Source: Escherichia phage PNJ-9
Direction: 5' to 3' (one strand)
DNA length: 64,000 bases
Sequence record: PQ100635.1
Position numbers and translations under genes: made by a program
Part shown: positions 33,749 through 48,896 of the stretch, one piece after another
Layout: the number at the start of each line of letters is the position of its first letter
Position numbering within the stretch: position 1 is the stretch's first letter
The notes under the pieces: model-generated
What the model saw: the letters and a program-made list of their open reading frames with translations, nothing else
Told to the model about the DNA's origin: nothing
Database searches by the model: none

Positions 33749-34384
33749 ATGAAAACTACTCCTATTACTATCGCTATTGACGCAATCATAAAACAATCTT
33801 CTTCTTTGGCCGCTATGGCCAAAGTAATTAGTCAAAACCCTGCTCGTTATAATGCTATTCTAGAAACTCTTCGACGCCCGGGACTTAGTAATTATGAAAG
33901 CCGAGTAATTATTACAGGTGTTGGTAAGAATGCTAATATTGCAACTAAAGCTTCTGAGACATTTGCTTCACTCGGTATCCCGAGTATGTACTTGAACACT
34001 GGGCATTATTCTCACGGTGATGCAGGATTCATTGCGCCTAATGATGTGTTGATTCATATTAGTCGTTCTGGTAAAACTGAAGAAATGATAGGCGTGGCTA
34101 AGCATCTTAAAATGATTCGTCCGAACGTCAAACAGATTCTGTTGCATTGTAACCCAGACATTCCACAAGAATACGAAGCTCTTTTTGATTATACGTTCTG
34201 TACAGGCATCGCAGTAGAGGTTGATGAGAATTCTCTGGCTCCGACCATGTCCACTACATTGTTGTTAGCGCTTATCGATACGTTTGCTATCAACCTTTCG
34301 TCTGAACGTGGATTTACCTCTAATGACTTCCTTAAGTTCCACCCTGGCGGTGCACTAGGTGCCATGTTACGAGGCGAACAATGA
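33749..34384 (+). CDS. SIS-domain sugar-phosphate isomerase (arabinose-5-P isomerase / phosphoheptose isomerase-like)
   Basis: 211 aa; RVIITGVGKNANIATK...HISRSGKTEE typical SIS motifs; GAGAGAAAT RBS. Confidence 0.7.
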   Translation: MKTTPITIAIDAIIKQSSSLAAMAKVISQNPARYNAILETLRRPGLSNYESRVIITGVGKNANIATKASETFASLGIPSMYLNTGHYSHGDAGFIAPNDVLIHISRSGKTEEMIGVAKHLKMIRPNVKQILLHCNPDIPQEYEALFDYTFCTGIAVEVDENSLAPTMSTTLLLALIDTFAINLSSERGFTSNDFLKFHPGGALGAMLRGEQ

Positions 34385-34524
34385 AAGCAATAACAATAGG
34401 ACTTTTACTATTGATGCTTGTCATGACTATCTACTGGAGCTTAACGGCTCCAGTAATGATTCCGACTCTTATAATCGGATGGATTATGATTGGACTACAA
34501 GCAAAGTATGAATGCTTTAACTAG
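34381..34524 (+). CDS. small hydrophobic membrane protein (47 aa), below track threshold
   Basis: ATGA-coupled to SIS gene, GAGG RBS; two predicted TM helices. Confidence 0.4.
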   Translation: MKAITIGLLLLMLVMTIYWSLTAPVMIPTLIIGWIMIGLQAKYECFN

Positions 34525-34565: not shown

Positions 34566-36254
34566 ATGAAAAAAGCTGTTATTCTTGGTGCTGGACTGGC
34601 AACTCGTTTGTATCCAATAACGCATCATATTCCTAAGGTGCTTGTTAACTATAAACAAGACACTATTCTGAGCAATTTGTATACAATTTATTCTGACCTT
34701 GGCGCAGATGAAATTATTGTAGTAGTTCATTCAAAATTTGCTGAAACTGTTCGAGCTTATTGTGAGCAAGAAGGGTTCAATGTGACTATTCGTACAGTTG
34801 ATGAAGCGTATGGTTCTGCTTATGCTCTTGCTAAATTGCACAAAGATTTAGACGGCCATAATGTAATTGTTAACTGGTGTGATATTATTCCTGATTTTGG
34901 TTCGTGGTCTTGGAATGTTAACGCAATCTATGTTAAGGGTGACGAATGTCGATATAATTTCGACGGTGAAAATATCACTAATGTAGGTTCAACAGGTGGT
35001 AATGTTGTAGGAATTTATCAGTTCAAAGACTGGGAATTCTATATGGGTTCTACTGATGAGGAAATTCATGAATACTGCAAAGGACGTGATTTCGTAGAAT
35101 TCCTTTACGGCAGCGCATTCAATAAATCAGAGCTTATGAATATCATCGACCTTGGTGATATGCCTAAACTTGAAAAAGCTCATGAAGTTCGTGAACTTAA
35201 TCGTAGTTTTAATGCAGTTGAAATTGGCGAAGAAACGGTAACAAAGATTGCTTTAACAGAACAGGGCGTTGCACTTCAAAAAGATGAAGTCAATTGGTAT
35301 AAGAAAGTTAAATCAGATTCAGTTCCACGGATTGTAAGTTATCATCCTGGCGGCCACTTTATTATGGAACGTATTAAAGGTAAGCCAGCATTTGAATATA
35401 TTAAATCCAAATCAAGTCTTGCTCGTCCACAAATTGTTGATGCAATTTTAGATGCACTGAAATTCAGCACAGACACTTATTTTGTAAGTCCTGAAACTGT
35501 TCGTCGTGATTTCACTAAAGAATTCTATACTAAAGTTATTGATCGTTGTGAAAGTATTCAACCATTGATTGATTCATTTGGTAAAATCACACATGTGAAC
35601 TACACTAAGATTGGGCGTCTGAAGCCAATGTTGAAACAAGCTTTAGAACACCTTATTCGTTATCATAACCGTTCTCAGGGACAGTACTCTGTTATTCATG
35701 GTGACCCGAACTTCAGTAATACTATGATTACTGATAATGGTGAAGTCAAGTTTATCGACCCTCGTGGATATTTTGGTGAAACCAAGATTTATGGGCCAAA
35801 ATTGTATGATGAAGCTAAAGTGCTTTACGCTGTTTCAGGTTATGATGAATTCAACGCTAATCCGACTTGGGGACAGTTTACTATTGATGAAACAACTTGT
35901 AATGTGACTATTAACATCAATCCGTTAGTTTACAAATATGGAAAGATGAGTTCGTTTAATGAGTATCATCATTTGGCTGTAGCAATTATCTGGATTGCAT
36001 TAGGTGGTTATTTCAAGAATAATCCACTTAAAGCGGTAGCCGCATATTATAAAGGTATGGAACTTCTGACTAAGCAATTACGTAATATGGGCCGTGTACT
36101 TCAAGACGGCTCTATTAGTTATGATGTAGCAGAACCTGTAACGGCTACTCTGATTACAAAAAATCCTGGTAAATGGGTACTAACTGATAAAGAAACTGGT
36201 GTTTCTTATCGTCCAATCGGTGGCGATATCACTCATCAATGGGAACGAATCTAA
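34566..36254 (+). CDS. bifunctional sugar-1-phosphate nucleotidyltransferase / kinase-fold protein
   Basis: 562 aa; N-terminal ILGAGLATRLYPIT..PK motif; C-terminal HGDPNFSN...IDPRG aminoglycoside-phosphotransferase-like kinase motif. Confidence 0.7.
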   Translation: MKKAVILGAGLATRLYPITHHIPKVLVNYKQDTILSNLYTIYSDLGADEIIVVVHSKFAETVRAYCEQEGFNVTIRTVDEAYGSAYALAKLHKDLDGHNVIVNWCDIIPDFGSWSWNVNAIYVKGDECRYNFDGENITNVGSTGGNVVGIYQFKDWEFYMGSTDEEIHEYCKGRDFVEFLYGSAFNKSELMNIIDLGDMPKLEKAHEVRELNRSFNAVEIGEETVTKIALTEQGVALQKDEVNWYKKVKSDSVPRIVSYHPGGHFIMERIKGKPAFEYIKSKSSLARPQIVDAILDALKFSTDTYFVSPETVRRDFTKEFYTKVIDRCESIQPLIDSFGKITHVNYTKIGRLKPMLKQALEHLIRYHNRSQGQYSVIHGDPNFSNTMITDNGEVKFIDPRGYFGETKIYGPKLYDEAKVLYAVSGYDEFNANPTWGQFTIDETTCNVTININPLVYKYGKMSSFNEYHHLAVAIIWIALGGYFKNNPLKAVAAYYKGMELLTKQLRNMGRVLQDGSISYDVAEPVTATLITKNPGKWVLTDKETGVSYRPIGGDITHQWERI

Positions 36255-38133: not shown

Positions 38134-38850
38134 ATGGGAAAACATAACACAATGAAATATATCAAAGCCGCAGATTTTCAAACCGCATTTAAAGCAGTCA
38201 ATCGTGAAATTTTAGAAAACCCGGAATTCGTAACTGATTCTCGTATTGGACGTTGTAATGAAATTGGGTCTATGACAGTAGTTGTTGATACCCCTTCATC
38301 ATTCAAAATGACCGACCCACGTATTAACCGCATCTCTTATGAATATGCCGAAGACTTCTGGAAATTTATGATTTCTGGTGGTACTGATGCAGAAGAAGCA
38401 TTTAAGGCATATCCTAATGTCGCTAAATTTATTTCTAAACCAAAATCAGATGCTTTGCCTGCGAACTTCAACACTTTCTATGGTCCTCGCATTGCGGCCC
38501 AATTACCAACTCTTCTAAAAGAACTTAAAGAGAAACCTAACTCTCGAAGAGTTGTGTTCCAAATTCTAGAAAGTTCTGATCAGGCTTTGCTTGATTCGGA
38601 TGAAACGCTTGAATATCCATGTACTGACTCAGTGACTTATTATATTCGTGATGGTAAGCTTTATACCCACTGTCATATGCGTTCTCAGAACTGTGCTGTT
38701 GTTATGCAGTTGGATTTTTATCTCCAAGGAAAATTACTTCATTATATCGCTAACGAATGTGGTGTAGAAGTTGGTGATTATACTCATACCATGGTAAGTG
38801 CCCATGTGTTTGAACGTGATTTTGATTATGTTAAAGGATTCCTTGACTAA
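38134..38850 (+). CDS. 42: dCMP hydroxymethylase gp42 (thymidylate-synthase fold)
   Basis: 238 aa; CTDSVTYYIRDGKLYTHCHMRSQNCAVVMQLDF aligns with T4 gp42 active-site region from memory. Confidence 0.8.
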   Translation: MGKHNTMKYIKAADFQTAFKAVNREILENPEFVTDSRIGRCNEIGSMTVVVDTPSSFKMTDPRINRISYEYAEDFWKFMISGGTDAEEAFKAYPNVAKFISKPKSDALPANFNTFYGPRIAAQLPTLLKELKEKPNSRRVVFQILESSDQALLDSDETLEYPCTDSVTYYIRDGKLYTHCHMRSQNCAVVMQLDFYLQGKLLHYIANECGVEVGDYTHTMVSAHVFERDFDYVKGFLD

Positions 38851-39749
38851 TGGCTATTTTCCGCGTACCTATCTTGAGTATGCGGTCTTATGAAACTGGT
38901 CAGTATGCTATCCTTAAGGATGGCAACTTCCAACTTCATTTGCACCGTGCTAATCCAGGTGATGTAATTACATATCCACGTAATGCATCTGATATTAAAG
39001 AATGTGAACGTCTTTTCCCAGAATTTAAGTTTGTTCCATTATGGTATAAAGATAACGCATATAACACTCGTAAATATTTCTGGTCTGAAAATGAATTTGT
39101 GGTTGATTCATTAATTGCTTATTATGATTGTGATTTTCTAATCACAGATATCACTGGATATGACGGCGCTTTTGATGTGGAATTCAATTTCAATATCACT
39201 GCAGACCCTAATAAACCACGTTTTTATATTGACGAATTCTTAAAAACCGATATGTTGTCGGTTAATCGTTCACTTCAAACTACTGTGTTGAATAAACGTC
39301 AAAAGGAAGTGCTGGTTAACGCTGGTGCCGATGGTAATAAGATTATCGTAACCCAGAAAGTTATACGTCCTTCCATCATGCAGCGTCTTGTAGGTGATTT
39401 GGCTCCTATTCATCTAGATGGTATTTTTCATCCATTTCGAATTAGTGACCCGTGCTATCGTTTTGAACAAGTGGTTGAATGTGCAATTCAATTAGGTCAA
39501 CCGCTTTATATAACCGATCCAAATAATAGCTTCGACAGAAATAAGTATCCTGAAGAAGCGCTGATTCGAATTTTTAAACCAACTAAAACTGAGTACTATC
39601 AAATTCTTAAAGGACGTCCGAAGATTCAATATTTCGAAAATCCTGAAGAAGTATTTCATCCAGGTCTTGGCGAGTTCATCTACTTTAACGCTTTAATTTC
39701 TTCGCCGTATAATATACCTAAATATGAAGATGTTGTAATCGAGGAATAA
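38850..39749 (+). CDS. hypothetical protein (299 aa) in the position occupied by beta-glucosyltransferase in T4; candidate DNA sugar-transferase
   Basis: TAATG-coupled to gene 42; no recognisable motif; functional call by synteny only. Confidence 0.55.
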   Translation: MAIFRVPILSMRSYETGQYAILKDGNFQLHLHRANPGDVITYPRNASDIKECERLFPEFKFVPLWYKDNAYNTRKYFWSENEFVVDSLIAYYDCDFLITDITGYDGAFDVEFNFNITADPNKPRFYIDEFLKTDMLSVNRSLQTTVLNKRQKEVLVNAGADGNKIIVTQKVIRPSIMQRLVGDLAPIHLDGIFHPFRISDPCYRFEQVVECAIQLGQPLYITDPNNSFDRNKYPEEALIRIFKPTKTEYYQILKGRPKIQYFENPEEVFHPGLGEFIYFNALISSPYNIPKYEDVVIEE

Positions 39750-41914: not shown

Positions 41915-43357
41915 GTGGTAGAAATTATTTTGTCTCATCTAGTATATGACCAGGCTTATTTTTCTAAGGTCTGGCCTTATATGGATTCTGAGTATTTTGA
42001 GCGTGGACCGGCAAAAAACGTCTTTAAAATTATAAAGAGCCACGTTAACGAATATAATGCAATGCCGTCTATCAACGCATTAAAGGTGGCTTTAGATAAC
42101 AGTTCTTTAACTGAAGCCGAATATAAAGGAACTTCAGATCTAATTGAAAAATTGGCTGATACTCCTGAAGACCACGAATGGTTGGTTAAAGAAACTGAGA
42201 AATATGTCCAGCAAAAAGCGATGTATAATGCTACATCCAAAATCATTGAGATTCAGTCTAATGCTGAACTACCTCCAGAACAACGTAACAAGAAAATGCC
42301 TGACGTAGGAGCTATTCCTGATATTATGCGTCAAGCACTTTCAATTTCGTTTGATAGTTATGTTGGGCATGACTGGATGGAAGACTATGAAGCACGCTGG
42401 CTTTCTTATCTGAACAAAGCACGTAAGGTCCCGTTCAAATTAAACATTCTGAATAAAATCACTAAAGGTGGTGCTGAAACCGGTACACTGAATGTTTTAA
42501 TGGCTGGTGTTAACGTTGGTAAATCTTTAGGCCTTTGTTCACTTGCTGCAGATTATCTTCAAACAGGTCATAATGTTCTTTATATTTCCATGGAAATGGC
42601 TGAAGAAGTTTGTGCTAAGCGTATAGATGCAAACATGCTTGACGTATCACTTGATGATATCGATGATGGTAACGTATCTTATGCCGAATATAAAGCCAAG
42701 ATGGAAAAATGGCGTTCAAAATCCACATTAGGACGTTTAGTAGTTAAACAGTATCCTACTGGTGGAGCTAATGCTAATACATTCCGTGCATTGCTTAATG
42801 AATTGAAACTCAAGAAGAACTTTGTGCCATCTGTAATCATGGTTGATTACTTAGGTATTTGTGGGTCTTGTCGTATCAGAGTTTACACTGAAAATAGCTA
42901 CACATTAGTTAAAGCTATCGCAGAAGAACTTCGTGCATTAGCAGTAGAATCTGAAACAGTTCTATGGACTGCAGCTCAAGTAGGACGTGCAGCATGGGAT
43001 GCTTCGGATATGAACATGAGCGATATTGCAGAATCAGCAGGTTTACCAGCAACGGCAGATTTCATGTTGGCCGTAATTGAAACCGAAGAACTTGCACAAG
43101 CTGAACAACAACTTATCAAACAAATCAAATCACGATACGGTGATAAGAATAAGTGGAATAAATTCCTGATGGGTGTACGTAAAGGCAACCAGAAATGGGT
43201 TGAGATTGAGCAAGAAGGCATGAACACACCTAACACAGTAAATGAAAACGCAGGTGCTCAGATGCGTCAGGCAGAGGTGAATCGTACGGAACGCGTAGGT
43301 AAAGCCAAAACAACCCGTGCTGACCTAGATAGCTTAGCCAATGAGTTAAAATTTTAA
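41915..43357 (+). CDS. 41: replicative DNA helicase gp41 (DnaB-like)
   Basis: 480 aa; Walker A GVNVGKS; GTG start after AAGGAG RBS. Confidence 0.9.
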   Translation: MVEIILSHLVYDQAYFSKVWPYMDSEYFERGPAKNVFKIIKSHVNEYNAMPSINALKVALDNSSLTEAEYKGTSDLIEKLADTPEDHEWLVKETEKYVQQKAMYNATSKIIEIQSNAELPPEQRNKKMPDVGAIPDIMRQALSISFDSYVGHDWMEDYEARWLSYLNKARKVPFKLNILNKITKGGAETGTLNVLMAGVNVGKSLGLCSLAADYLQTGHNVLYISMEMAEEVCAKRIDANMLDVSLDDIDDGNVSYAEYKAKMEKWRSKSTLGRLVVKQYPTGGANANTFRALLNELKLKKNFVPSVIMVDYLGICGSCRIRVYTENSYTLVKAIAEELRALAVESETVLWTAAQVGRAAWDASDMNMSDIAESAGLPATADFMLAVIETEELAQAEQQLIKQIKSRYGDKNKWNKFLMGVRKGNQKWVEIEQEGMNTPNTVNENAGAQMRQAEVNRTERVGKAKTTRADLDSLANELKF

Positions 43358-43363
43358 TAAAAA

Positions 43364-43383
43364 GGAGACTTCGGTCTCCTTTC
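43364..43383 (+). terminator. hairpin terminator (TTCG tetraloop)
   Basis: GGAGAC-TTCG-GTCTCC followed by TTT. Confidence 0.5.
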
Positions 43384-43386
43384 GGG

Positions 43387-43416
43387 GTTTACATCTCCCT
43401 CTAGGCATGATATGAT
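43387..43416 (+). promoter_or_regulatory. early promoter (GTTTAC, 17 bp, TATGAT)
   Basis: Read directly. Confidence 0.5.
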
Positions 43417-43445
43417 GTACTTACACTAACCGAGAGGAAAACATT

Positions 43446-43820
43446 ATGAATATGTCTCAAGCAATTTTTACTGCAATCACCGAAAACACAACTGTTGAAG
43501 TAGTTTCTCCGCTGGCAACCTACGTTATTCTTGCTCCTAAAACTATTGTATCTCGTATGGAAAACATGGGCAAACGTATCGTACAAATTGTTGGAGCCGG
43601 AAATCAAAAACTTGATTATCTGCGAACCATCAAAGCTTATGAACATTTCCAACTCGAAAAAGGTTCTCCTATCCAGGTAGAACTCGTAAATGGTGATATC
43701 GTTCGAGCAATGTTCCATCATTTCTATGCATTGAATGACCCATCTAAAGCAGTTCGTTTAATTGCATACGACGCAAACCAAAACGAAATCAACGCAGATG
43801 TATCTAAATTACGTTTTTAA
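43446..43820 (+). CDS. hypothetical protein (124 aa)
   Basis: GAGAGGAAAA RBS. Confidence 0.5.
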   Translation: MNMSQAIFTAITENTTVEVVSPLATYVILAPKTIVSRMENMGKRIVQIVGAGNQKLDYLRTIKAYEHFQLEKGSPIQVELVNGDIVRAMFHHFYALNDPSKAVRLIAYDANQNEINADVSKLRF

Positions 43821-43849
43821 GTTTACTTCTCCAGTAGTTGTGTTATTAT
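43821..43849 (+). promoter_or_regulatory. early promoter (GTTTAC, TATTAT) with perfect 12-bp dyad CTCCAGTAGTTG/CAACTACTGGAG
   Basis: Read directly; right arm overlaps the SD of the next gene. Confidence 0.55.
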
Positions 43850-43875
43850 AGACTTATCAACTACTGGAGAACAAA

Positions 43876-44193
43876 ATGAAAACCATCGATTGTAAAGCAG
43901 AATTTAAGATTTTTTATCACGGTTCAAGTAGTTCAGCTAACATCGAAAACATGCTTTGTCCTCCTGAGGAAACAGGAGTTCTGTCTGAAACTGGACGTAA
44001 GAAAAACTTGGATCGTGTATTCTTTACTGAAGATATCGGTTTAGCAAAGATTTATGCAGGACGAGCAGCACGCTCTTATGGAGGTGAACCACGTCTCTAT
44101 CGAGTAATTTCTCCGGTAGACGTAGTTCAAATGAATAATACTAAAGGTGCTACAGTTTATCACGCTGAATGGGCATTTTGCGAGGAAATATGA
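43876..44193 (+). CDS. Arr-like (rifampin-ADP-ribosyltransferase family) small ADP-ribosyltransferase
   Basis: 105 aa; FYHGSSSSANI and RVFFTEDIGLAKIYAG...EPRLYRVISP align with Arr motifs from memory. Confidence 0.5.
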   Translation: MKTIDCKAEFKIFYHGSSSSANIENMLCPPEETGVLSETGRKKNLDRVFFTEDIGLAKIYAGRAARSYGGEPRLYRVISPVDVVQMNNTKGATVYHAEWAFCEEI

Positions 44194-44381
44194 GCAAATT
44201 AACTAAAGTTACTTTTATCGGTTGGTTTAAAAGCGGCGAGATGTTCACTAAAGATATCATGTTATCAGGTGACCGTGAAGAAATCGAGTGGGTTACGGTA
44301 CAACTTGCTGAAGTGAACAAAGCATTAGTTAAAGCATTTGTTAATGACGAGAAAGTTTTTGAAGCTGATTTCAGAGGATAA
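44190..44381 (+). CDS. hypothetical protein (63 aa)
   Basis: ATGA-coupled start after GAGGAA. Confidence 0.45.
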   Translation: MSKLTKVTFIGWFKSGEMFTKDIMLSGDREEIEWVTVQLAEVNKALVKAFVNDEKVFEADFRG

Positions 44382-44382
44382 T

Positions 44383-44595
44383 ATGTATTCAACTGTGTTT
44401 AAACCATCAACATACGAATTTGCATCAACTACACAATGGAAAGCTCTTATTCTGGAAGGATGGGAACTAATGATGGACTGTGAAGCATCTGAAAAGTTTC
44501 CACACGGCAAAGTGGACTTCGTTAAATTTGCTGTACGTCCGACTAAACGACAGATTCGTCAAGAAAAACGCAAATTTCGCAAAAGTTTAAAATAG
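44383..44595 (+). CDS. small basic protein, RPTKRQ-motif family (70 aa)
   Basis: C-terminal FAVRPTKRQIRQEKRKFRKSLK; ATG after AGAGGATAAT. Confidence 0.45.
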   Translation: MYSTVFKPSTYEFASTTQWKALILEGWELMMDCEASEKFPHGKVDFVKFAVRPTKRQIRQEKRKFRKSLK

Positions 44596-44597
44596 AT

Positions 44598-44627
44598 GTT
44601 TACAAGCATCGCATACTGTGTTACTAT
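44598..44627 (+). promoter_or_regulatory. early promoter (GTTTAC, 17 bp, TACTAT)
   Basis: Read directly. Confidence 0.5.
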
Positions 44628-44655
44628 CTTTCTATCAACTACAGAGGAAATTGAA

Positions 44656-45024
44656 ATGAAAAAATTAATCGCTTTAGCAATGGTATTTGGATTAACCGGA
44701 TGTGGTGCCCACGGCTTTATCCCTAATAACGTTGGCCAACTGATTTACAATCCGAATGTTAAACAGTATGACCAACCTAAAGTTGAAGTGGAAGACCCGG
44801 TTACTGTAGGTAATCGAATGATTCAAGCTGATGCCCATGCTCAACGTTATCGTGACTCTGATACTGTAGCATTATCAAAAGAACAACGCGTTAAAGAACA
44901 TTGTCTACAGGCTACTGAAATCGCATTCATTCGCTATGTTGAAACAACTGGTAAAGAGCCTACCCAGAAACAAATCGCGAATAACTACGTCCGGTGTATT
45001 GAACGTTTAAACAAATTTAATTAA
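44656..45024 (+). CDS. predicted lipoprotein (122 aa)
   Basis: Signal peptide with lipobox LTGC; AGAGGAAA RBS. Confidence 0.55.
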   Translation: MKKLIALAMVFGLTGCGAHGFIPNNVGQLIYNPNVKQYDQPKVEVEDPVTVGNRMIQADAHAQRYRDSDTVALSKEQRVKEHCLQATEIAFIRYVETTGKEPTQKQIANNYVRCIERLNKFN

Positions 45025-45084
45025 TTGGTTACACCAAAGTTAAAACAAGATATTATAAACATAACAAATCAAGAGGAAATTAAC

Positions 45085-45333
45085 ATGGAATTATTCGTAG
45101 CTAGTTCAGTAGCAGTTTTAATCGCAGGTATTGGTTCAATCGTCATTTATATGTTGCCTTGGGTAATCGCACTTATTCGTGGCACAAAAAGCACAACAGC
45201 AATCTTCTTTGTATCTTTACTCTTTAACTGGACGATGATTGGTTGGATTGGAACTTTAATTTGGTCTATCGTTGCCGAAAAGAAATCTGCTCAGCAGCCT
45301 CAACAAGTAATTATTATTCGCGAAAAAGAATAA
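45085..45333 (+). CDS. Imm-like superinfection immunity membrane protein (82 aa)
   Basis: Two TM helices; LPWVIALIRG...MIGWIGTLIWSIV resembles the superinfection-immunity family signature. Confidence 0.55.
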   Translation: MELFVASSVAVLIAGIGSIVIYMLPWVIALIRGTKSTTAIFFVSLLFNWTMIGWIGTLIWSIVAEKKSAQQPQQVIIIREKE

Positions 45334-45337
45334 AGTT

Positions 45338-45367
45338 GTTTACATTATAGATGGACTATGGTATAGT
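45338..45367 (+). promoter_or_regulatory. early promoter (GTTTAC, 17 bp, TATAGT) with GGACTAT/ATAGTCC dyad
   Basis: Read directly. Confidence 0.5.
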
Positions 45368-45396
45368 AGTCCTATCAAATCAACTAAGGAGTTAAA

Positions 45397-45690
45397 ATGA
45401 AAAAGTTATCATTGGCAGCAATCTTACTTGCGGTATCATGTGCACCAGCTCCAGTTACAGCAGGTTATGATAAAGACCTCTGTGAGTGGTCAATGACTGC
45501 AAATCAAGAAGATGTTGAACAACAAATCTTCTCTGATATCATGAACATCACTAAACGAGACCGTCCTAATATGGTTAATAAAGTTGTTGAACAACTTAAG
45601 TCTGGTGGTATTATGCAGTACAATTATGTTTTGTATTGTGACCCTAATTTCGATAACAAAGATATCGTAACCGAAATCACAGGTGAATAA
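45397..45690 (+). CDS. predicted lipoprotein (97 aa)
   Basis: Signal peptide with lipobox LAVSC; AAGGAG RBS. Confidence 0.55.
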   Translation: MKKLSLAAILLAVSCAPAPVTAGYDKDLCEWSMTANQEDVEQQIFSDIMNITKRDRPNMVNKVVEQLKSGGIMQYNYVLYCDPNFDNKDIVTEITGE

Positions 45691-45691
45691 T

Positions 45692-46342
45692 ATGATTTAT
45701 TACATGCACAAAAACGCACCATTTAAATATGGTAAATTTCCTAATGCACAATGTTATAATATAACGCCGAATGAAAATAATAACGGATACCATATTGGTG
45801 TAATTTTTGTAATTGTTAAAGATAACGAAATCGTTGCCTGGGCAGATTTTAAAGGTACAACATATGATGTTAATCCTGTGCCTTTCACATATTACAATAT
45901 AATGGATTTGGCATATGATTATAATTGGTTTACTCATGACACGTTGGCTCATATTGAAGGTGTAGGATTTGACATCTCTTATTCTAGCTATTCATTATGT
46001 CCTATGAGCCGAGCTCACGGTAAAGATGTATCATATCTTTCAATTCGGAAACGTGTAAACTTCAAACGTAGTACAGAGTATGTTGGTGGACTCTTTGTTA
46101 AAGATAATAAAATAACCCGTATTAGTTATCCTTTAAGTGTAGGTCAAAAAGATGTTGATGTTGATTTAGACTTAACTGAAAGTAACATTAATCGTATTGC
46201 TTCTGTATATTTTGATATCGATGAAAAAATTGTAGTGTGTGGATACGAATTACCACCTGAAGAAAAGGCTGAAACAATTGAAGTCGAATTAGAAATTTCT
46301 GTTGATGACCAAATATTTAATGCATTTATGAATCGAGGTTAA
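45692..46342 (+). CDS. hypothetical protein (216 aa)
   Basis: ATG after AGGTGAATAAT leader. Confidence 0.5.
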   Translation: MIYYMHKNAPFKYGKFPNAQCYNITPNENNNGYHIGVIFVIVKDNEIVAWADFKGTTYDVNPVPFTYYNIMDLAYDYNWFTHDTLAHIEGVGFDISYSSYSLCPMSRAHGKDVSYLSIRKRVNFKRSTEYVGGLFVKDNKITRISYPLSVGQKDVDVDLDLTESNINRIASVYFDIDEKIVVCGYELPPEEKAETIEVELEISVDDQIFNAFMNRG

Positions 46343-46343
46343 A

Positions 46344-46541
46344 ATGACTACTGCAATTTGCACTGGTTCTAAAATTAGTGTTTTTACAAGTTTTGAAGAT
46401 TATGAAGTTGTTTCAAAACACCAATGCCATATTAGCGTAAAAGCTAATGATGGTGTAATTTGGAATATTCCACAGTATGAAGGCACTACATATGAAGTCA
46501 CAGATGTAAATGGTGACAAAGCAATCTTTGTAATTGATTAA
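46344..46541 (+). CDS. hypothetical protein (65 aa)
   Basis: GAGGT RBS. Confidence 0.5.
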   Translation: MTTAICTGSKISVFTSFEDYEVVSKHQCHISVKANDGVIWNIPQYEGTTYEVTDVNGDKAIFVID

Positions 46542-46560
46542 ATATACTCAGGAGGTACCT

Positions 46561-47028
46561 ATGGGTATTATTAACACTGCAATAGATTCTGTTTACGCAT
46601 ATAAGTTTATTCGACTAATGCAAAAACCTTTTACCGAATGGAAAGCATACGAAGCCAAAATCATCGATGAACGTGGAAGTGTTCTTAAACGTCCTTCTAC
46701 TCCCGAAGAGAAAGCTGCGTATACACCTTTTCATGCTTCAGTTCGTTCAATGAAGCGAATGATGAGCACCGTTCCAGGTCTTAATGGAATGGCCTCAATG
46801 ATGTCTGCCTGGAGTGCTGTAGCTTCACGCTATAACATTACTGAAGAACAACAGAAAGAAATATTTAAAGAACTCCCTTTATTTGAGGATATGGTTGCTG
46901 GTGATTCAGGCGGTAGTCCTCAAGCTATTGCATCAGGAACAACTACAGGTGCAGTCGTAAATAAAGGTCCAGAACAAATTCCTTCCAAGAAAAGAAAGCG
47001 AATTAAAGTAAATATTAATAAGTTGTGA
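46561..47028 (+). CDS. hypothetical protein (155 aa)
   Basis: ATG after GGAGGT RBS. Confidence 0.5.
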   Translation: MGIINTAIDSVYAYKFIRLMQKPFTEWKAYEAKIIDERGSVLKRPSTPEEKAAYTPFHASVRSMKRMMSTVPGLNGMASMMSAWSAVASRYNITEEQQKEIFKELPLFEDMVAGDSGGSPQAIASGTTTGAVVNKGPEQIPSKKRKRIKVNINKL

Positions 47029-47067
47029 TATGATGGCCTTATTAATTTAAGGCCTCTGGAGAATACT

Positions 47068-48090
47068 ATGGCTGAATGGATAGATAATGAATTTGCTTAT
47101 CGTGCGTTTTCTCACCTACCTCGTTTTAGACAAATCAATAATTCAAGCACATTTAAATTAACATTTCGTTGTCCAGTTTGTGGCGACTCCCAGACAGATG
47201 CAATGAAAGCTCGCGGTTGGTATTATGGCGGTACTCCTGGTAATGTACATTGCTATAACTGCCAATACCACAATACAATTTCCGGATACTTAAAAGAGTA
47301 TGATGAAGAGCTTTACCGCGAATATCTAATGGAAGTTCGTAAAGAAAAAGCTAGAATGGAACCAAAGATTGAAAAGGTTCCTGAAGCTAAGCCGGAGCCA
47401 GAGAAAAAGACTATAAATTCTTTGCCGTCTTGTTCTCGTCTGGACAAGCTGCCTGAAGAGCATCCTATTGTGAAATATGTTAAGTCTCGATGCATTCCTA
47501 AAGAATCATGGAACAGATTATGGTTCACATTAGAATGGCCTAAATTGGTCAACAAGATTCAACCTGGTACGTATAAGAAAGAGATTCCCGAACCACGTTT
47601 AGTGATTCCTATTTTTAATAAAGACGGGAAGGCTGAGTCATTCCAAGGACGTGCACTTCGTAAAGATGCTCCTCAGAAATATATCACTATTAAAGCGTTT
47701 GAGTCTGCAACAAAAATTTATGGTGTTGAACGTGTTAAGGAAGGAGACGTCTGGGTAATGGAAGGCCCTATTGATAGTTTATTCATACCCAATGCAATCG
47801 CTATTACAGGCGGCTCAATAGATTTAGATGTGGTACCATTTAAAGAACGTCGGGTATGGGTAATGGATAATGAACCTAGGCATCCGGATACTATAGCTCG
47901 CATGAAGCGATTAGTTGATGCAGGCGAACGTGTCATGTTCTGGGACCGAGCTCCATGGAGATCAAAGGATGTGAATGATATGGTAATGAAAGAAAATGCA
48001 ACACCACAAGAAATTTTAGAATATATGAAACAGAATATTTCAAGTGGGTTGCATGCTAAAATGAGATTATCTCGTTATTCTAAGATTTAA
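47068..48090 (+). CDS. 61: DNA primase gp61
   Basis: 340 aa; N-terminal zinc ribbon CPVCGD...CYNC and TOPRIM-like core; T4 gp61 is 342 aa. Confidence 0.9.
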   Translation: MAEWIDNEFAYRAFSHLPRFRQINNSSTFKLTFRCPVCGDSQTDAMKARGWYYGGTPGNVHCYNCQYHNTISGYLKEYDEELYREYLMEVRKEKARMEPKIEKVPEAKPEPEKKTINSLPSCSRLDKLPEEHPIVKYVKSRCIPKESWNRLWFTLEWPKLVNKIQPGTYKKEIPEPRLVIPIFNKDGKAESFQGRALRKDAPQKYITIKAFESATKIYGVERVKEGDVWVMEGPIDSLFIPNAIAITGGSIDLDVVPFKERRVWVMDNEPRHPDTIARMKRLVDAGERVMFWDRAPWRSKDVNDMVMKENATPQEILEYMKQNISSGLHAKMRLSRYSKI

Positions 48091-48284
48091 ACAAGCCCTA
48101 TAATAGCAAAGGCCAAATCAACTACAGTATCTAATGGAACAGAAGGAACCATAACACCATGGGCAACTAACAATGGCGCAATACCGAAGTTCCATGAAAT
48201 AATGCCACCTACAACTATTGCAGCGATAGCAGTTTTCTTTTTATTGCCTTTAATAGCGTTGATTAACGATGGAAGTTTAAACAT
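48087..48284 (-). CDS. small membrane protein (65 aa) encoded antisense between genes 61 and 56
   Basis: Strong SD (TAACTAAGGAGATATT-ATG on minus strand); two hydrophobic segments; region has no + strand ORF. Confidence 0.5.
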   Translation of the reverse strand: MFKLPSLINAIKGNKKKTAIAAIVVGGIISWNFGIAPLLVAHGVMVPSVPLDTVVDLAFAIIGLV

Positions 48285-48316
48285 AATATCTCCTTAGTTA
48301 CCTTATTATTTATTAC

Positions 48317-48340
48317 GCTTTATAAAATTAATGTTAGAAT
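48317..48340 (+). promoter_or_regulatory. middle promoter candidate (GCTTTA box, 12 bp, TAGAAT) upstream of gene 56
   Basis: Read directly. Confidence 0.45.
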
Positions 48341-48374
48341 TAACTTCTCTTATACTGAATTGAAAGGAAAAATA

Positions 48375-48896
48375 ATGGCACACTTTAACGAATGTTCACA
48401 ACTTATTTCTGGTGTTGATAAAGCAGAAGAAGCTTATTTTAATGCTCTGATTCACGAAGATAAAGACCCTCTGCAGGTAATGCTTGATATGCAGAAATCT
48501 TTACAGGTTCGTCTGGCAAATGACAAGCCTGAACATAACAAACATCCTGATGAATTGGCTACTGCTGGTGATGTTGTTGATTGGCTGCGTAATCAGAAAG
48601 ATTATATTGATGATGAATTCCGTGAACTGCTGACTTCACTTGGTGGTATGAGCAATGGTGAAAAAGCCGCTAGCTCTGTATGGAAGCCGTGGAAGGCACA
48701 ACATGCTGAATATCGAAATCGTCGTATCGATGAACTGTCTCCTGAAGACCAGCTTGAAATTAAATTTGAAATGATTGATATTCTGCATTTCGTTCTAAAT
48801 ATGTTCCAAGGTCTAGGACTTTCTGCTGAAGAAATCTTCAAACTGTATTACCTGAAAAACCAACACAACTTTGAACGCCAGGATAATGGTTACTAA
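48375..48896 (+). CDS. 56: dCTPase/dUTPase gp56 (MazG-like)
   Basis: 173 aa from ATG after GAAAGGAAAAATA RBS; position as T4 gene 56. Confidence 0.8.
   Translation: MAHFNECSQLISGVDKAEEAYFNALIHEDKDPLQVMLDMQKSLQVRLANDKPEHNKHPDELATAGDVVDWLRNQKDYIDDEFRELLTSLGGMSNGEKAASSVWKPWKAQHAEYRNRRIDELSPEDQLEIKFEMIDILHFVLNMFQGLGLSAEEIFKLYYLKNQHNFERQDNGY

Follow-up and report, generated by a model that had tools for sequence, protein, structure and literature searches.

Does the group of ten open reading frames (ORFs) between genes 41 and 61 of Escherichia phage PNJ-9 represent an island acquired by the phage, or is it a regular component of the genome of such a phage? A preliminary description of this DNA had proposed an accessory island between two genes said to be adjacent in T4. 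Our analysis of the window, a stretch of 64,000 nucleotides from record PQ100635.1, gave a different answer. We consider it probable, at about 85%, that positions 43387-47028 hold no foreign insertion and correspond to the early-gene cluster normally found between genes 41 and 61 of T-even phages, in the version typical of Mosigvirus (RB69-type). The content of the cluster is already known from the 2003 RB69 annotation or later papers.

The 41–61 interval is shared with RB69-type phages

The window came from an RB69-type phage of the genus Mosigvirus, with approximately 98% nucleotide identity. As the preliminary description had stated, ten ORFs separate the helicase and primase genes, and all of them lie on the + strand (Table 1). 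Their arrangement was identical to that of RB69 (NC_004928, RB69p031-p041; 98.1% nucleotide identity), whose reference record already names dmd, 61.4, imm.1, imm, sp, 61.2 and 61.1 at the same locus. The one difference was that the long 61.1 is split in the RB69 record (ORF032c and 61.1) and is a single intact ORF in the window and in HX01. Both RB69 and HX01 keep all ten ORFs with about 97-100% amino-acid identity, and the 3.8-kb region aligned over its full length with RB69, HX01 and JN02 at 98-98.6% nucleotide identity. This region was covered to at least 80% in 152 phage records, and its identity at the best place was 95-99% in 155 records.

Table 1. Genes, promoter-like elements and the intergenic relic, in positions of the window
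Feature	Position	Strand	Description
T4 imm|42 intergenic relic	34402..34514	+	former imm site, behind gene 43 and the GutQ-like gene
gene 41	41915..43357	+	replicative helicase, left border; 99% identity to RB69 gp41, 86% to T4 gp41
41/o1 cassette	43361..43416	+	stem-loop GGAGAC-TTCG-GTCTCC (43361-43382), then early-promoter motif GTTTACA-N17-TATGAT (43387-43416)
o1 (RB69ORF041c)	43446..43820	+	124 aa; phrog_10668
second cassette copy	43821..43871	+	GTTTACT-N16-TATTAT
o2 (RB69ORF040c)	43876..44193	+	105 aa; minimal ADP-ribosyltransferase fold, Arr family
dmd	44190..44381	+	antitoxin versus RnlA/LsoA RNases by orthology; PF17587, E 8.9e-22; 57-58% identity to T4 Dmd
61.4 (DUF7279)	44383..44595	+	PF23945, E 5e-20; 57-60% identity to T4 gp61.4
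motif before imm.1	44598..44627	+	early-promoter motif GTTTACA-N17-TACTAT
imm.1 (DUF5481)	44656..45024	+	lipoprotein; PF17578, E 6.9e-9; 32-35% identity to T4 Imm.1
site before imm	45028..45056	+	looser promoter-like site GTTACA-N17-TATTAT
imm (ORF6)	45085..45333	+	inner-membrane superinfection-immunity protein by orthology; PF14373
motif before sp	45338..45367	+	early-promoter motif GTTTACA-N17-TATAGT
sp (Spackle)	45397..45690	+	periplasmic gp5 tail lysozyme inhibitor by orthology; PF25676, E 1.1e-42
adfA (gene 61.2, ORF8)	45692..46342	+	anti-DarT factor A; PF23813, E 3.3e-118
o9 (RB69ORF033c)	46344..46541	+	65 aa; phrog_3249; 69% identity to JS98 orf28
61.1, long form	46561..47028	+	155 aa; immediately upstream of gene 61; phrog_2086
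gene 61	47068..48090	+	primase, right border; 99.7% identity to RB69 gp61, 74% to T4 gp61

Comparison with T4 and other genera

The premise that genes 41 and 61 adjoin in T4 was false. The T4 order is 41-dmd-61.4-sp-61.2-61.1-61, and these five intervening genes (61.2 being adfA) were found in the window in the same order and direction, with 57-75% amino-acid identity. In comparison with T4, the window carries o1 and o2 behind gene 41, imm.1-imm between 61.4 and sp, and o9 ahead of 61.1. The 61.1 protein of the window has 155 aa and represents the long form; T4 gp61.1 has 54 residues, to which the C-terminus of the long form is 75% identical. Gene 61.1 was present in 1,473 phage records, in 588 of them as the long form, and is recorded as a conserved gene of T4 and five further genomes (PMC1524935). 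T4 orthologues account for seven of the ten ORFs, and six of these (Dmd, DUF7279, DUF5481, Imm, Spackle and AdfA) matched their Pfam families with scores above the threshold.

There is consequently hardly any chance that a recent accessory island was inserted between formerly adjacent 41 and 61: the idea fails because T4 itself carries five genes there, and the two genes are also non-adjacent in JS98 (nine genes between them), a Kanagawavirus (six) and Acinetobacter phage 133 (about 15). An island would agree with the length of the interval (3.7 kb versus 1.65 kb in T4), with the confinement of the full ten-gene set to Mosigvirus and with the restriction of o1 to some members of one lineage. 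However, base composition showed no anomaly across the interval (GC 0.32-0.43, matching the flanks), and domain and family searches revealed no integrase or homing endonuclease domain in the ten ORFs. What stands of the island proposal is that the 41–61 interval is a variable region with genus-dependent content. Universal occurrence of the same ten genes, which the preliminary description had named as speaking against an accessory status, is not what the genera show, and by this measure its proposal is not refuted.

Promoter cassettes and the position of o1

The motif GTTTAC-N17-18-TAYNRT occurred 15 times in the window versus 0.46 expected by chance, each time on the + strand, and four of the 15 fell inside the 3.6-kb interval. 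A general sigma-70 scan of the region, in contrast, found no enrichment (31 sites versus 27 expected). Matches to T4-type early promoter cassettes were detected in five intergenic gaps, the one upstream of imm being looser; half of the ten genes have a predicted promoter of their own. In the o1|o2 gap the -10 element lies in the loop of a 14-bp hairpin (43827-43840 with 43858-43871) whose 3' arm covers the o2 ribosome-binding site; the fold had a z-score of -5.07, and none of 200 shuffled sequences folded equally well.

Gene o1 was found in 134 records, with an identity of at least 95% in 132. It is restricted to Mosigvirus and patchy among its members, being absent from LF82-1, SQ17 and Mizar, as well as from JS98 and the examined T4 segment. 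Phage LF82-1 has in place of o1 a single cassette, the 5' half of which corresponds to the 41|o1 gap of the window and the 3' half to the o1|o2 gap. The breakpoint falls between the -35 and -10 elements. The outgroup JS98 showed the same pattern, its single 41|o2 cassette aligning with the 5' part of the 41/o1 cassette and the 3' part of the o1|o2 cassette. We suggest that o1 became inserted with a copy of the 41|o2 promoter cassette on either side, and that the differences from T4 may have arisen more generally through recombination between such cassettes.

Probable relocation of imm.1-imm

ORF6, described previously as Imm-like, proved to be a true Imm, matching PF14373 (E 2.5e-15; 56.5 bits, cutoff 27.9) and showing 62-64% identity to T4 Imm. 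R33 and W50, two residues important to T4 Imm function (bioRxiv 10.64898/2026.03.06.709160), are conserved. In T4, JS98 and STML-198 imm adjoins gene 43 on its downstream side. It is missing from that slot in the window, as had been noted; the slot was said to be occupied by the sugar cassette, but only one cassette gene, the GutQ-like gene (33749-34384), fills it. In JS98, despite the presence of a related sugar cassette, imm is still beside gene 43. Downstream of the GutQ-like gene we found a relic with 72% identity over 115 nt to the T4 imm|42 intergenic region; it is annotated as RB69ORF054c, "similar to T4 42-imm intercistronic region", and in JS98 lies directly behind imm. The intergenic region upstream of imm.1 had its closest counterpart in the 43|imm intergenic region of JS98 (score 46, z 15.8), and the sp promoter motif had 18 of 18 nt in common with the T4 41|dmd intergenic region, although such similarities are short (40-60 nt) and the cassettes are mutually alike, which makes the exact recombination partners uncertain. 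The imm.1-imm pair probably moved in, with its own promoter, from the older site beside gene 43, a direction indicated by parsimony over three outgroup genera.

The order 61.4-imm.1-imm-sp was contiguous in 154 of 950 records and is Mosigvirus-specific. Of the two lipoproteins proposed for the interval, Imm.1 holds up, with a signal peptide and the canonical lipobox L-T-G-C (L-A-G-C in T4 Imm.1), and is on sequence grounds the only true lipoprotein among the ten. The second is Spackle, a soluble periplasmic protein. We rejected it as a lipoprotein: its Cys15 is inside the signal peptide, the chain in PDB 7cn6 matches residues 23-97, and mature Spackle begins at Gly23 (PMC7677548).

Predicted functions of the early genes

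By orthology, several of these densely packed small early genes may serve to protect the newly infected cell. Imm in the inner membrane would bind the tape-measure protein of a second phage and thereby keep the DNA of that phage from entering (bioRxiv 10.64898/2026.03.06.709160). Spackle, with 66% identity to T4 Sp, conserved C29 and C81 and matches to PDB 6x6o and 7cn6, would inhibit the gp5 tail lysozyme of incoming phages in the periplasm (PMC7677548), and Dmd would neutralise the RNase toxins RnlA and LsoA (PMC5308261, PMC8266594). AdfA would bind the DarT1 toxin. It has a T4-like ATG at 45692 (the RefSeq start corresponds to 45704) and, at RefSeq position 164, the R of the RB69-type allele where T4 has H; the R164 allele does not neutralise the DarT1 tested (PMC11257639). 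Among the proteins of the cluster, AdfA alone has been the subject of work in RB69. A protective role would fit these four of the ten genes only.

A closer functional grouping, with imm.1-imm beside sp as an envelope superinfection-exclusion module and o2-dmd as a translationally coupled RNA-protection or counter-defence pair, appears unlikely to us. It is consistent with the contiguity of imm.1-imm-sp, with the pairing of an imm.1-like lipoprotein with imm at both genomic positions (in STML-198, where it precedes imm, in T4 and in the window) and with the overlap of the o2 stop codon by the dmd ATG (ATGA), two genes that also adjoin in JS98. An o2-like domain is moreover fused to a 2H/Acb1-like phosphoesterase within a portal protein. 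Nevertheless, adjacency of imm.1, imm and sp is not needed for co-expression because each has an apparent promoter of its own, a distance of 6 kb between imm and sp does not keep T4 from excluding superinfecting phages, and JS98 has imm without imm.1. In Pseudotevenvirus and Biquartavirus o2 is far from any dmd, and T4 has dmd with no o2 in the 17-kb segment examined. A further difference from T4 is the lack of a separate promoter for dmd in the window.

The o2 mini-transferase

The only open lead in the cluster is o2, which occurs in approximately 600 phage genomes. Its earlier description as Arr-like agrees with the Arr/Tpt1-like ADP-ribosyltransferase fold that we detected. Arr was the best PDB sequence match of the o2 family profile, with the HGT, E-x-G-R and VFFT/IYIT blocks aligned, and by fold o2 matched a 94-aa viral protein named "Rifampin ADP-ribosyl transferase" (E 7e-9). 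Related domains do match Pfam Arr-ms. These observations would suit a true rifamycin-inactivating Arr that shields the host RNA polymerase needed by the phage, a function that we nonetheless regard as quite improbable. The o2 protein itself gave no Pfam Arr-ms match at E up to 1 and falls short of the 143 residues of Arr by about 35, a position possibly matching Arr Asp84 is variable in its family, and Tpt1 and Arr scored equally by fold. The related domains are found in multidomain phage proteins beside NUDIX, ART-PolyVal, GNAT and 2H domains, neighbours that suggest a host-conflict context. In comparison with Tpt1/KptA, an RNA 2'-phosphotransferase, o2 is missing the N-terminal RNA-binding lobe.

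Comparison with PeSL cassettes

Published work on T4-like phages has described promoter-terminator cassettes termed PeSL as well as hyperplastic regions (Arbiol et al. 2010, PMC2839356; Comeau et al. 2014, PMC4122927). The PeSL consensus is TTTACW-N17-TAYWAT (PMC4122927), which the motif in the window matches. The window differs in that an upstream stem-loop is present only at 41|o1, while the o1|o2 hairpin instead spans the promoter and the ribosome-binding site. It resembles the PeSL system in the shared consensus, in the stem-loop at 41|o1, in cassettes that flank variable genes and in the o1 breakpoint inside a promoter. The location of the o1 breakpoints within the predicted cassette fits the published PeSL gene-shuffling model.

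The interval between genes 41 and 61 is an RB69-type version of the T-even early-gene cluster

Ten open reading frames, all on the plus strand, lie between the gene 41 helicase and the gene 61 primase of PNJ-9, as had been seen from the sequence alone. The left flank is formed by uvsX, 40 and 41 and the right flank by 61 and 56. Since RB69 and HX01 carry all ten ORFs at about 97–100% amino-acid identity, we regard them as real genes. At the nucleotide level RB69, HX01, JN02 and many Mosigvirus Escherichia phages were 98.0–98.6% identical to the window over 3.8 kb around the interval; at least 80% of these 3.8 kb was covered in 152 phage records, and the identity at the best place was 95–99% in 155 records. 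Seven of the genes (dmd, 61.4, imm.1, imm, sp, 61.2 and 61.1) are already labeled here in the RB69 reference record.

Features of the gene 41–gene 61 interval and of related sites in the window
Feature	Position	Strand	Family, match or description	Identity to T4
gp41	41915-43357			
o1	43446-43820	+		
Hairpin before o2	43827-43871		14 bp, z -5.07	
o2	43876-44193	+	105 aa	
dmd	44190-44381	+	PF17587, E 8.9e-22; T4 Dmd orthologue	57-58%
61.4	44383-44595	+	DUF7279	57-60%
imm.1	44656-45024	+	DUF5481; lipobox LTGC	
imm	45085-45333	+	PF14373, 56.5 bits (cutoff 27.9), E 2.5e-15	62-64%
sp (Spackle)	45397-45690	+	PF25676, E 1.1e-42	66%
adfA (61.2)	45692/45704-46342	+	PF23813 full length, E 3.3e-118, 393 bits	65-67%
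o9	46344-46541	+	common to JS98	
61.1	46561-47028	+	long form, 155 aa	75% (C-terminus)
Hairpin before gene 61	47035-47053		7 bp, GGCCTTA-N6-TAAGGCC, fold z-score -2.0	
gp61	47068-48090			
Small ORF	48087-48284	-	65 aa, hydrophobic	
GutQ-like gene	33749-34384		follows gene 43	
113-nt stretch	34402-34514		follows the GutQ-like gene	

The preliminary description took genes 41 and 61 to be neighbors in T4 and the DNA between them to be an accessory island. The first premise was wrong, as the T4 reference record gives the transcription order 41, dmd, 61.4, sp, 61.2, 61.1, 61, with five genes in a 1.65-kb interval, and the window keeps these five in the T4 order. The content of the interval was found to vary by genus, with nine genes in JS98 (Dhakavirus), six in a Kanagawavirus and about 15 in Acinetobacter phage 133. 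Because T4 and other genera have several genes here, the interval is a standing variable region and not an insertion between neighbors. The marks of a horizontally acquired genomic island (a shift in base composition, mobility genes, absence from relatives) were not found: the GC content of the interval (0.32–0.43) matched that of the flanks, domain searches of its ORFs detected no integrase or endonuclease domains, and T4 and JS98 hold most of its genes at the same locus. There was no match in tRNA and Rfam scans of 43000–48500, and no usable match in an NCBIfam search with all ten proteins. The earlier observation was thus partly right, but most of its interpretation did not hold. What lies here is the RB69-type form, already known, of the T-even 41–61 early-gene cluster; as judged from homology, its ten genes include two putative superinfection-exclusion genes and two known counter-defence genes. 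As the locus and its gene names have been published before, together with what four of the genes do, the finding carries little weight as a discovery; its chief value is corrective, with regard to the adjacency in T4, the nature of Spackle and the foreign island. Some RefSeq product names here appear to be spurious, namely "iduronate sulfatase" for Imm.1 in T4 (segment L003) and HX01 (segment L002) and "DNA polymerase" for gp61.4 in HX01.

The imm.1–imm pair lies beside sp in Mosigvirus

An Imm-like protein had been proposed for the interval, and the profile match above cutoff together with the end-to-end alignment to T4 Imm (82 versus 83 aa) bore this out. The Imm of the window retains R33 and W50, mutation of which weakens exclusion by T4, and a 2026 preprint reports that genome entry is blocked through binding of Imm to the tape-measure protein gp29 (bioRxiv 10.64898/2026.03.06.709160). 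We consider the window Imm a putative superinfection-exclusion protein. Its upstream neighbor Imm.1 has a signal peptide ending in a canonical lipobox ([LVI][ASTVI][GAS]C), with MKKLIALAMVFGLTGC in the window, LGLAGC in T4 Imm.1 and TLAGC in the homologue from STML-198. Searches for homologues of Imm.1 returned only three, later seven, clusters, and the AlphaFold2 model built from an eight-sequence alignment was poor (mean pLDDT of 59), with confidence confined to a C-terminal helical hairpin at residues 75–120. A smaller possibility is that this lipoprotein, whose gene would have moved along with imm, works as a partner of Imm when superinfecting phages are excluded.

The gene order is 43, imm.1, imm, 42 in T4 and 43, Imm.1-like lipoprotein gene, imm, 42 in STML-198 (Gelderlandvirus). 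In JS98 imm directly follows gene 43, and a small relic ORF and then a related sugar cassette separate it from 42. In the window and in RB69, gene 43 is followed by the GutQ-like gene, the 113-nt stretch and the sugar genes. The claim that imm is missing from its T4 site was therefore accurate for the window. As JS98 has both a sugar cassette and imm, the cassette alone did not displace imm. The 113-nt stretch is 72% identical to the non-coding gap between imm and 42 of T4 and is annotated as a small ORF in RB69 (RB69ORF054c) and JS98; rather than being a gene, it may represent a regulatory relic. Contiguous 61.4-imm.1-imm-sp was present in only 154 of the 950 records that contain at least one of these genes. 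By parsimony the site adjoining gene 43 would be the older one, and Mosigvirus would have shifted imm.1-imm into the gap between 61.4 and sp. What this adds to the existing annotation is the apparent relocation of the imm.1-imm pair with its promoter to a place beside sp, while imm of a sister genus stays at the old site despite a related sugar cassette.

Spackle, AdfA and the other T4-type genes

The preliminary description counted two lipoproteins in the interval. Imm.1 was one of them, but the second proved to be Spackle, with a profile match, a cleavable signal peptide (cleaved between VTA and GYDKD), a mature start at Gly23 and both C29 and C81 kept. In the apparent lipobox L-A-V-S-C an Ala occupies position -3 and Cys15 falls within the signal peptide, so that a lipoprotein was rejected. 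In its mature form Spackle extends from Gly23 to Glu97 and acts in the periplasm as a soluble inhibitor of the gp5 lysozyme (PMC7677548), and the chain in PDB entry 7cn6 comprises residues 23–97. Because the published mature T4 protein begins at Gly23, Cys15 is lost when the signal peptide is cleaved off, and the supposed pair therefore consists of one lipoprotein (Imm.1) and one secreted soluble protein (Spackle).

AdfA, the product of 61.2, is an anti-DarT factor first found in RB69 (PMC11257639). The window protein lacks His164, the DarT1-neutralising allele, and has R164 instead (NINRIASV, RefSeq numbering), which is the RB69-type allele that neither binds nor neutralises DarT1 (PMC11257639). 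A PDB sequence search with AdfA gave no match. Its final 14 residues (SVDDQIFNAFMNRG, window 46300–46342) shared 93% identity with the C-terminus of JS98 orf30 (JS98 segment L004, 6648–6689), a 144-aa protein that occupies the same slot after sp and is otherwise unrelated to AdfA. In T4, Dmd acts as an antitoxin that counters the RNases RnlA and LsoA (PMC5308261, PMC8266594).

Gene 61.1 is one of the ORFs that an earlier comparison listed as conserved across T4 and five further genomes (PMC1524935). It was detected in 1,473 phage records, in 588 of them as the long form, including phages of Aeromonas, Acinetobacter and Klebsiella; the T4 protein (54 aa) aligns solely with the C-terminal third of the window protein. 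The long form had no match in a PDB sequence search. A 7-bp hairpin follows 61.1 and precedes the gene 61 ribosome-binding site. The end of the small minus-strand ORF overlaps the end of gene 61; the annotations of RB69 (as ORF029w) and of a Kanagawavirus include this ORF, and the T4 gap between dam and 61 (L003, 2748–2936) contains an ORF 56% identical to it where the RefSeq table shows no feature. Three window ORFs (46534–47028, 34566–36254 and 38850–39749) are intact and are split in RB69 (segment L001) into ORF032c and 61.1, ORF053c and 052c, and ORF047c and 046c, respectively. The first is also intact in HX01 and the other two in JS98; errors in sequencing, or changes peculiar to the laboratory strain, may explain why RB69 has them split.

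o2 resembles Arr-family ADP-ribosyltransferases

The o2 product had been called Arr-like. By itself it matched no family in Pfam (E up to 1) or NCBIfam, Arr-ms (PF12120) included, and a PDB sequence search with it alone gave no match. The model built from a 30-sequence alignment was confident (pLDDT of 87) and showed an ADP-ribosyltransferase fold with the HG[ST] NAD-binding motif. When the o2 family profile was compared with the PDB, the best-scoring sequence was that of Arr (E 0.013), and the alignment brought the HGT, E-x-G-R and VFFT blocks into register; a viral structure library returned a 94-aa "rifampin ADP-ribosyl transferase" (E 7e-9), and more distant relatives of o2 matched Pfam Arr-ms at E 1e-5 to 1e-7. 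The label is thus supported at the level of predicted fold and distant sequence, although o2 itself does not match Arr-ms.

The catalytic residues of Arr are Tyr49 and Asp84. The position of Tyr49 aligns with a Phe of o2 (VFFT), and we could assign no invariant acidic residue to the position of Asp84; the candidate site has N in the window and differs among family members. Invariant in the wider family are H15, G16, P30, E38, R41, N44, V48, F49, T51, A57, I59, Y60, A61, G69 and G70; E103 is not. Tpt1 has an N-terminal RNA-binding lobe with catalytic Arg-His-Arg residues. A Tpt1/KptA enzyme with such a lobe was rejected for o2, which at 105 aa can be aligned with only 75 residues of the 179-residue Tpt1 chain.

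The o2 family is highly conserved, with identities of 60% or more, and was found in 609 phage records (about 600 Straboviridae genomes). Its gene comes directly after 41 in both JS98 and the Kanagawavirus, lies inside the 41–61 interval in phage 133, is located elsewhere in the genome in Pseudotevenvirus and Biquartavirus, and was not found in the 17-kb segment of T4 examined. A profile search of 1.8 billion proteins located the domain also at the termini or in the interior of long multidomain proteins, where it matches Arr-ms and adjoins ART-PolyVal, NUDIX, GNAT, Toprim and DUF7178. One protein of 954 aa (P0170) combines a lambda-family portal, a 2H/Acb1-like phosphoesterase and an o2-like ADP-ribosyltransferase domain, which suggests that an o2-like domain can be packaged in the head and injected. 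Multidomain architectures of this kind have been described for polyvalent phage proteins (PMC5512222); our literature search found no paper characterising the o2 family. In the window o2 is putatively translationally coupled to the antitoxin gene dmd, and this coupling together with the domain context points to counter-defence or RNA-end processing rather than antibiotic resistance. That o2 is an active NAD+-using Arr-family enzyme, acting on a target nobody has named, we consider possible but rather unlikely. The o2 protein is a reasonable candidate for work on phage counter-defence and the only lead here worth an experiment.

Promoter cassettes and the gain or loss of o1

Sequences of the T4 early-promoter type, followed by a common leader, TATCAACTAC-GAGGA, were found in five gaps, those between 41 and o1, o1 and o2, 61.4 and imm.1, imm.1 and imm, and imm and sp. 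The strict motif GTTTAC-N17-18-TAYNRT occurred 15 times in the window against 0.46 expected, always on the plus strand, and four of the 15 lie in the 3.6-kb interval. A general sigma-70 and terminator scan gave no enrichment over shuffles; the T4-specific motif alone was informative. TTCTCC directly after the -35 element recurs in other early promoters of the window (773, 4404 and 55704). In the strong hairpin before o2, the loop contains the -10 element of the putative o2 promoter and the 3' arm covers the ribosome-binding site of o2; RNA reading through from upstream would mask that site and locally started RNA would not.

The putative imm.1 promoter is closest to the promoter between 43 and imm of JS98 (z 15.8), and the putative sp promoter has 18 of 18 nt in common with the T4 gap between 41 and dmd. 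The exact recombination partners are tentative because the similarities are short and all the cassettes are alike.

The gene o1 was present in 134 records, in 132 of them with an identity of at least 95%; every record belongs to a phage of Escherichia, Shigella or a related host, and the identities are at the Mosigvirus level. About twenty Mosigvirus genomes, SQ17 and Mizar among them, lack the gene. A weak PDB match of o1 to phosphoheptose isomerase (E 0.08) was dropped, as o1 has no similarity to the two sugar-isomerase-like proteins of the window. In LF82-1, one of the genomes without o1, the single gap between 41 and o2 is a hybrid, matching the window 41–o1 gap up to the -35 element and the o1–o2 gap from the -10 element on; JS98 has the same single cassette. 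These gaps indicate that the promoter cassette has been duplicated, with one copy on either side of o1, and that the breakpoint falls within the promoter. The region would thus have been reshaped by promoter-cassette recombination, and o1 offers, beyond the annotation, a clean natural example of gain or loss by recombination within an early-promoter cassette. The window motif fits the published consensus of the T4-type promoter-early stem-loop (PeSL) cassette, TTTACW-N17-TAYWAT (PMC4122927; PMC2839356), and the 41–o1 gap, which adjoins the insertion/deletion, has the full PeSL set of stem-loop, TTTACW-N17-TAYWAT, Shine-Dalgarno sequence and start codon. A breakpoint inside the promoter is what the PeSL recombination model predicts.
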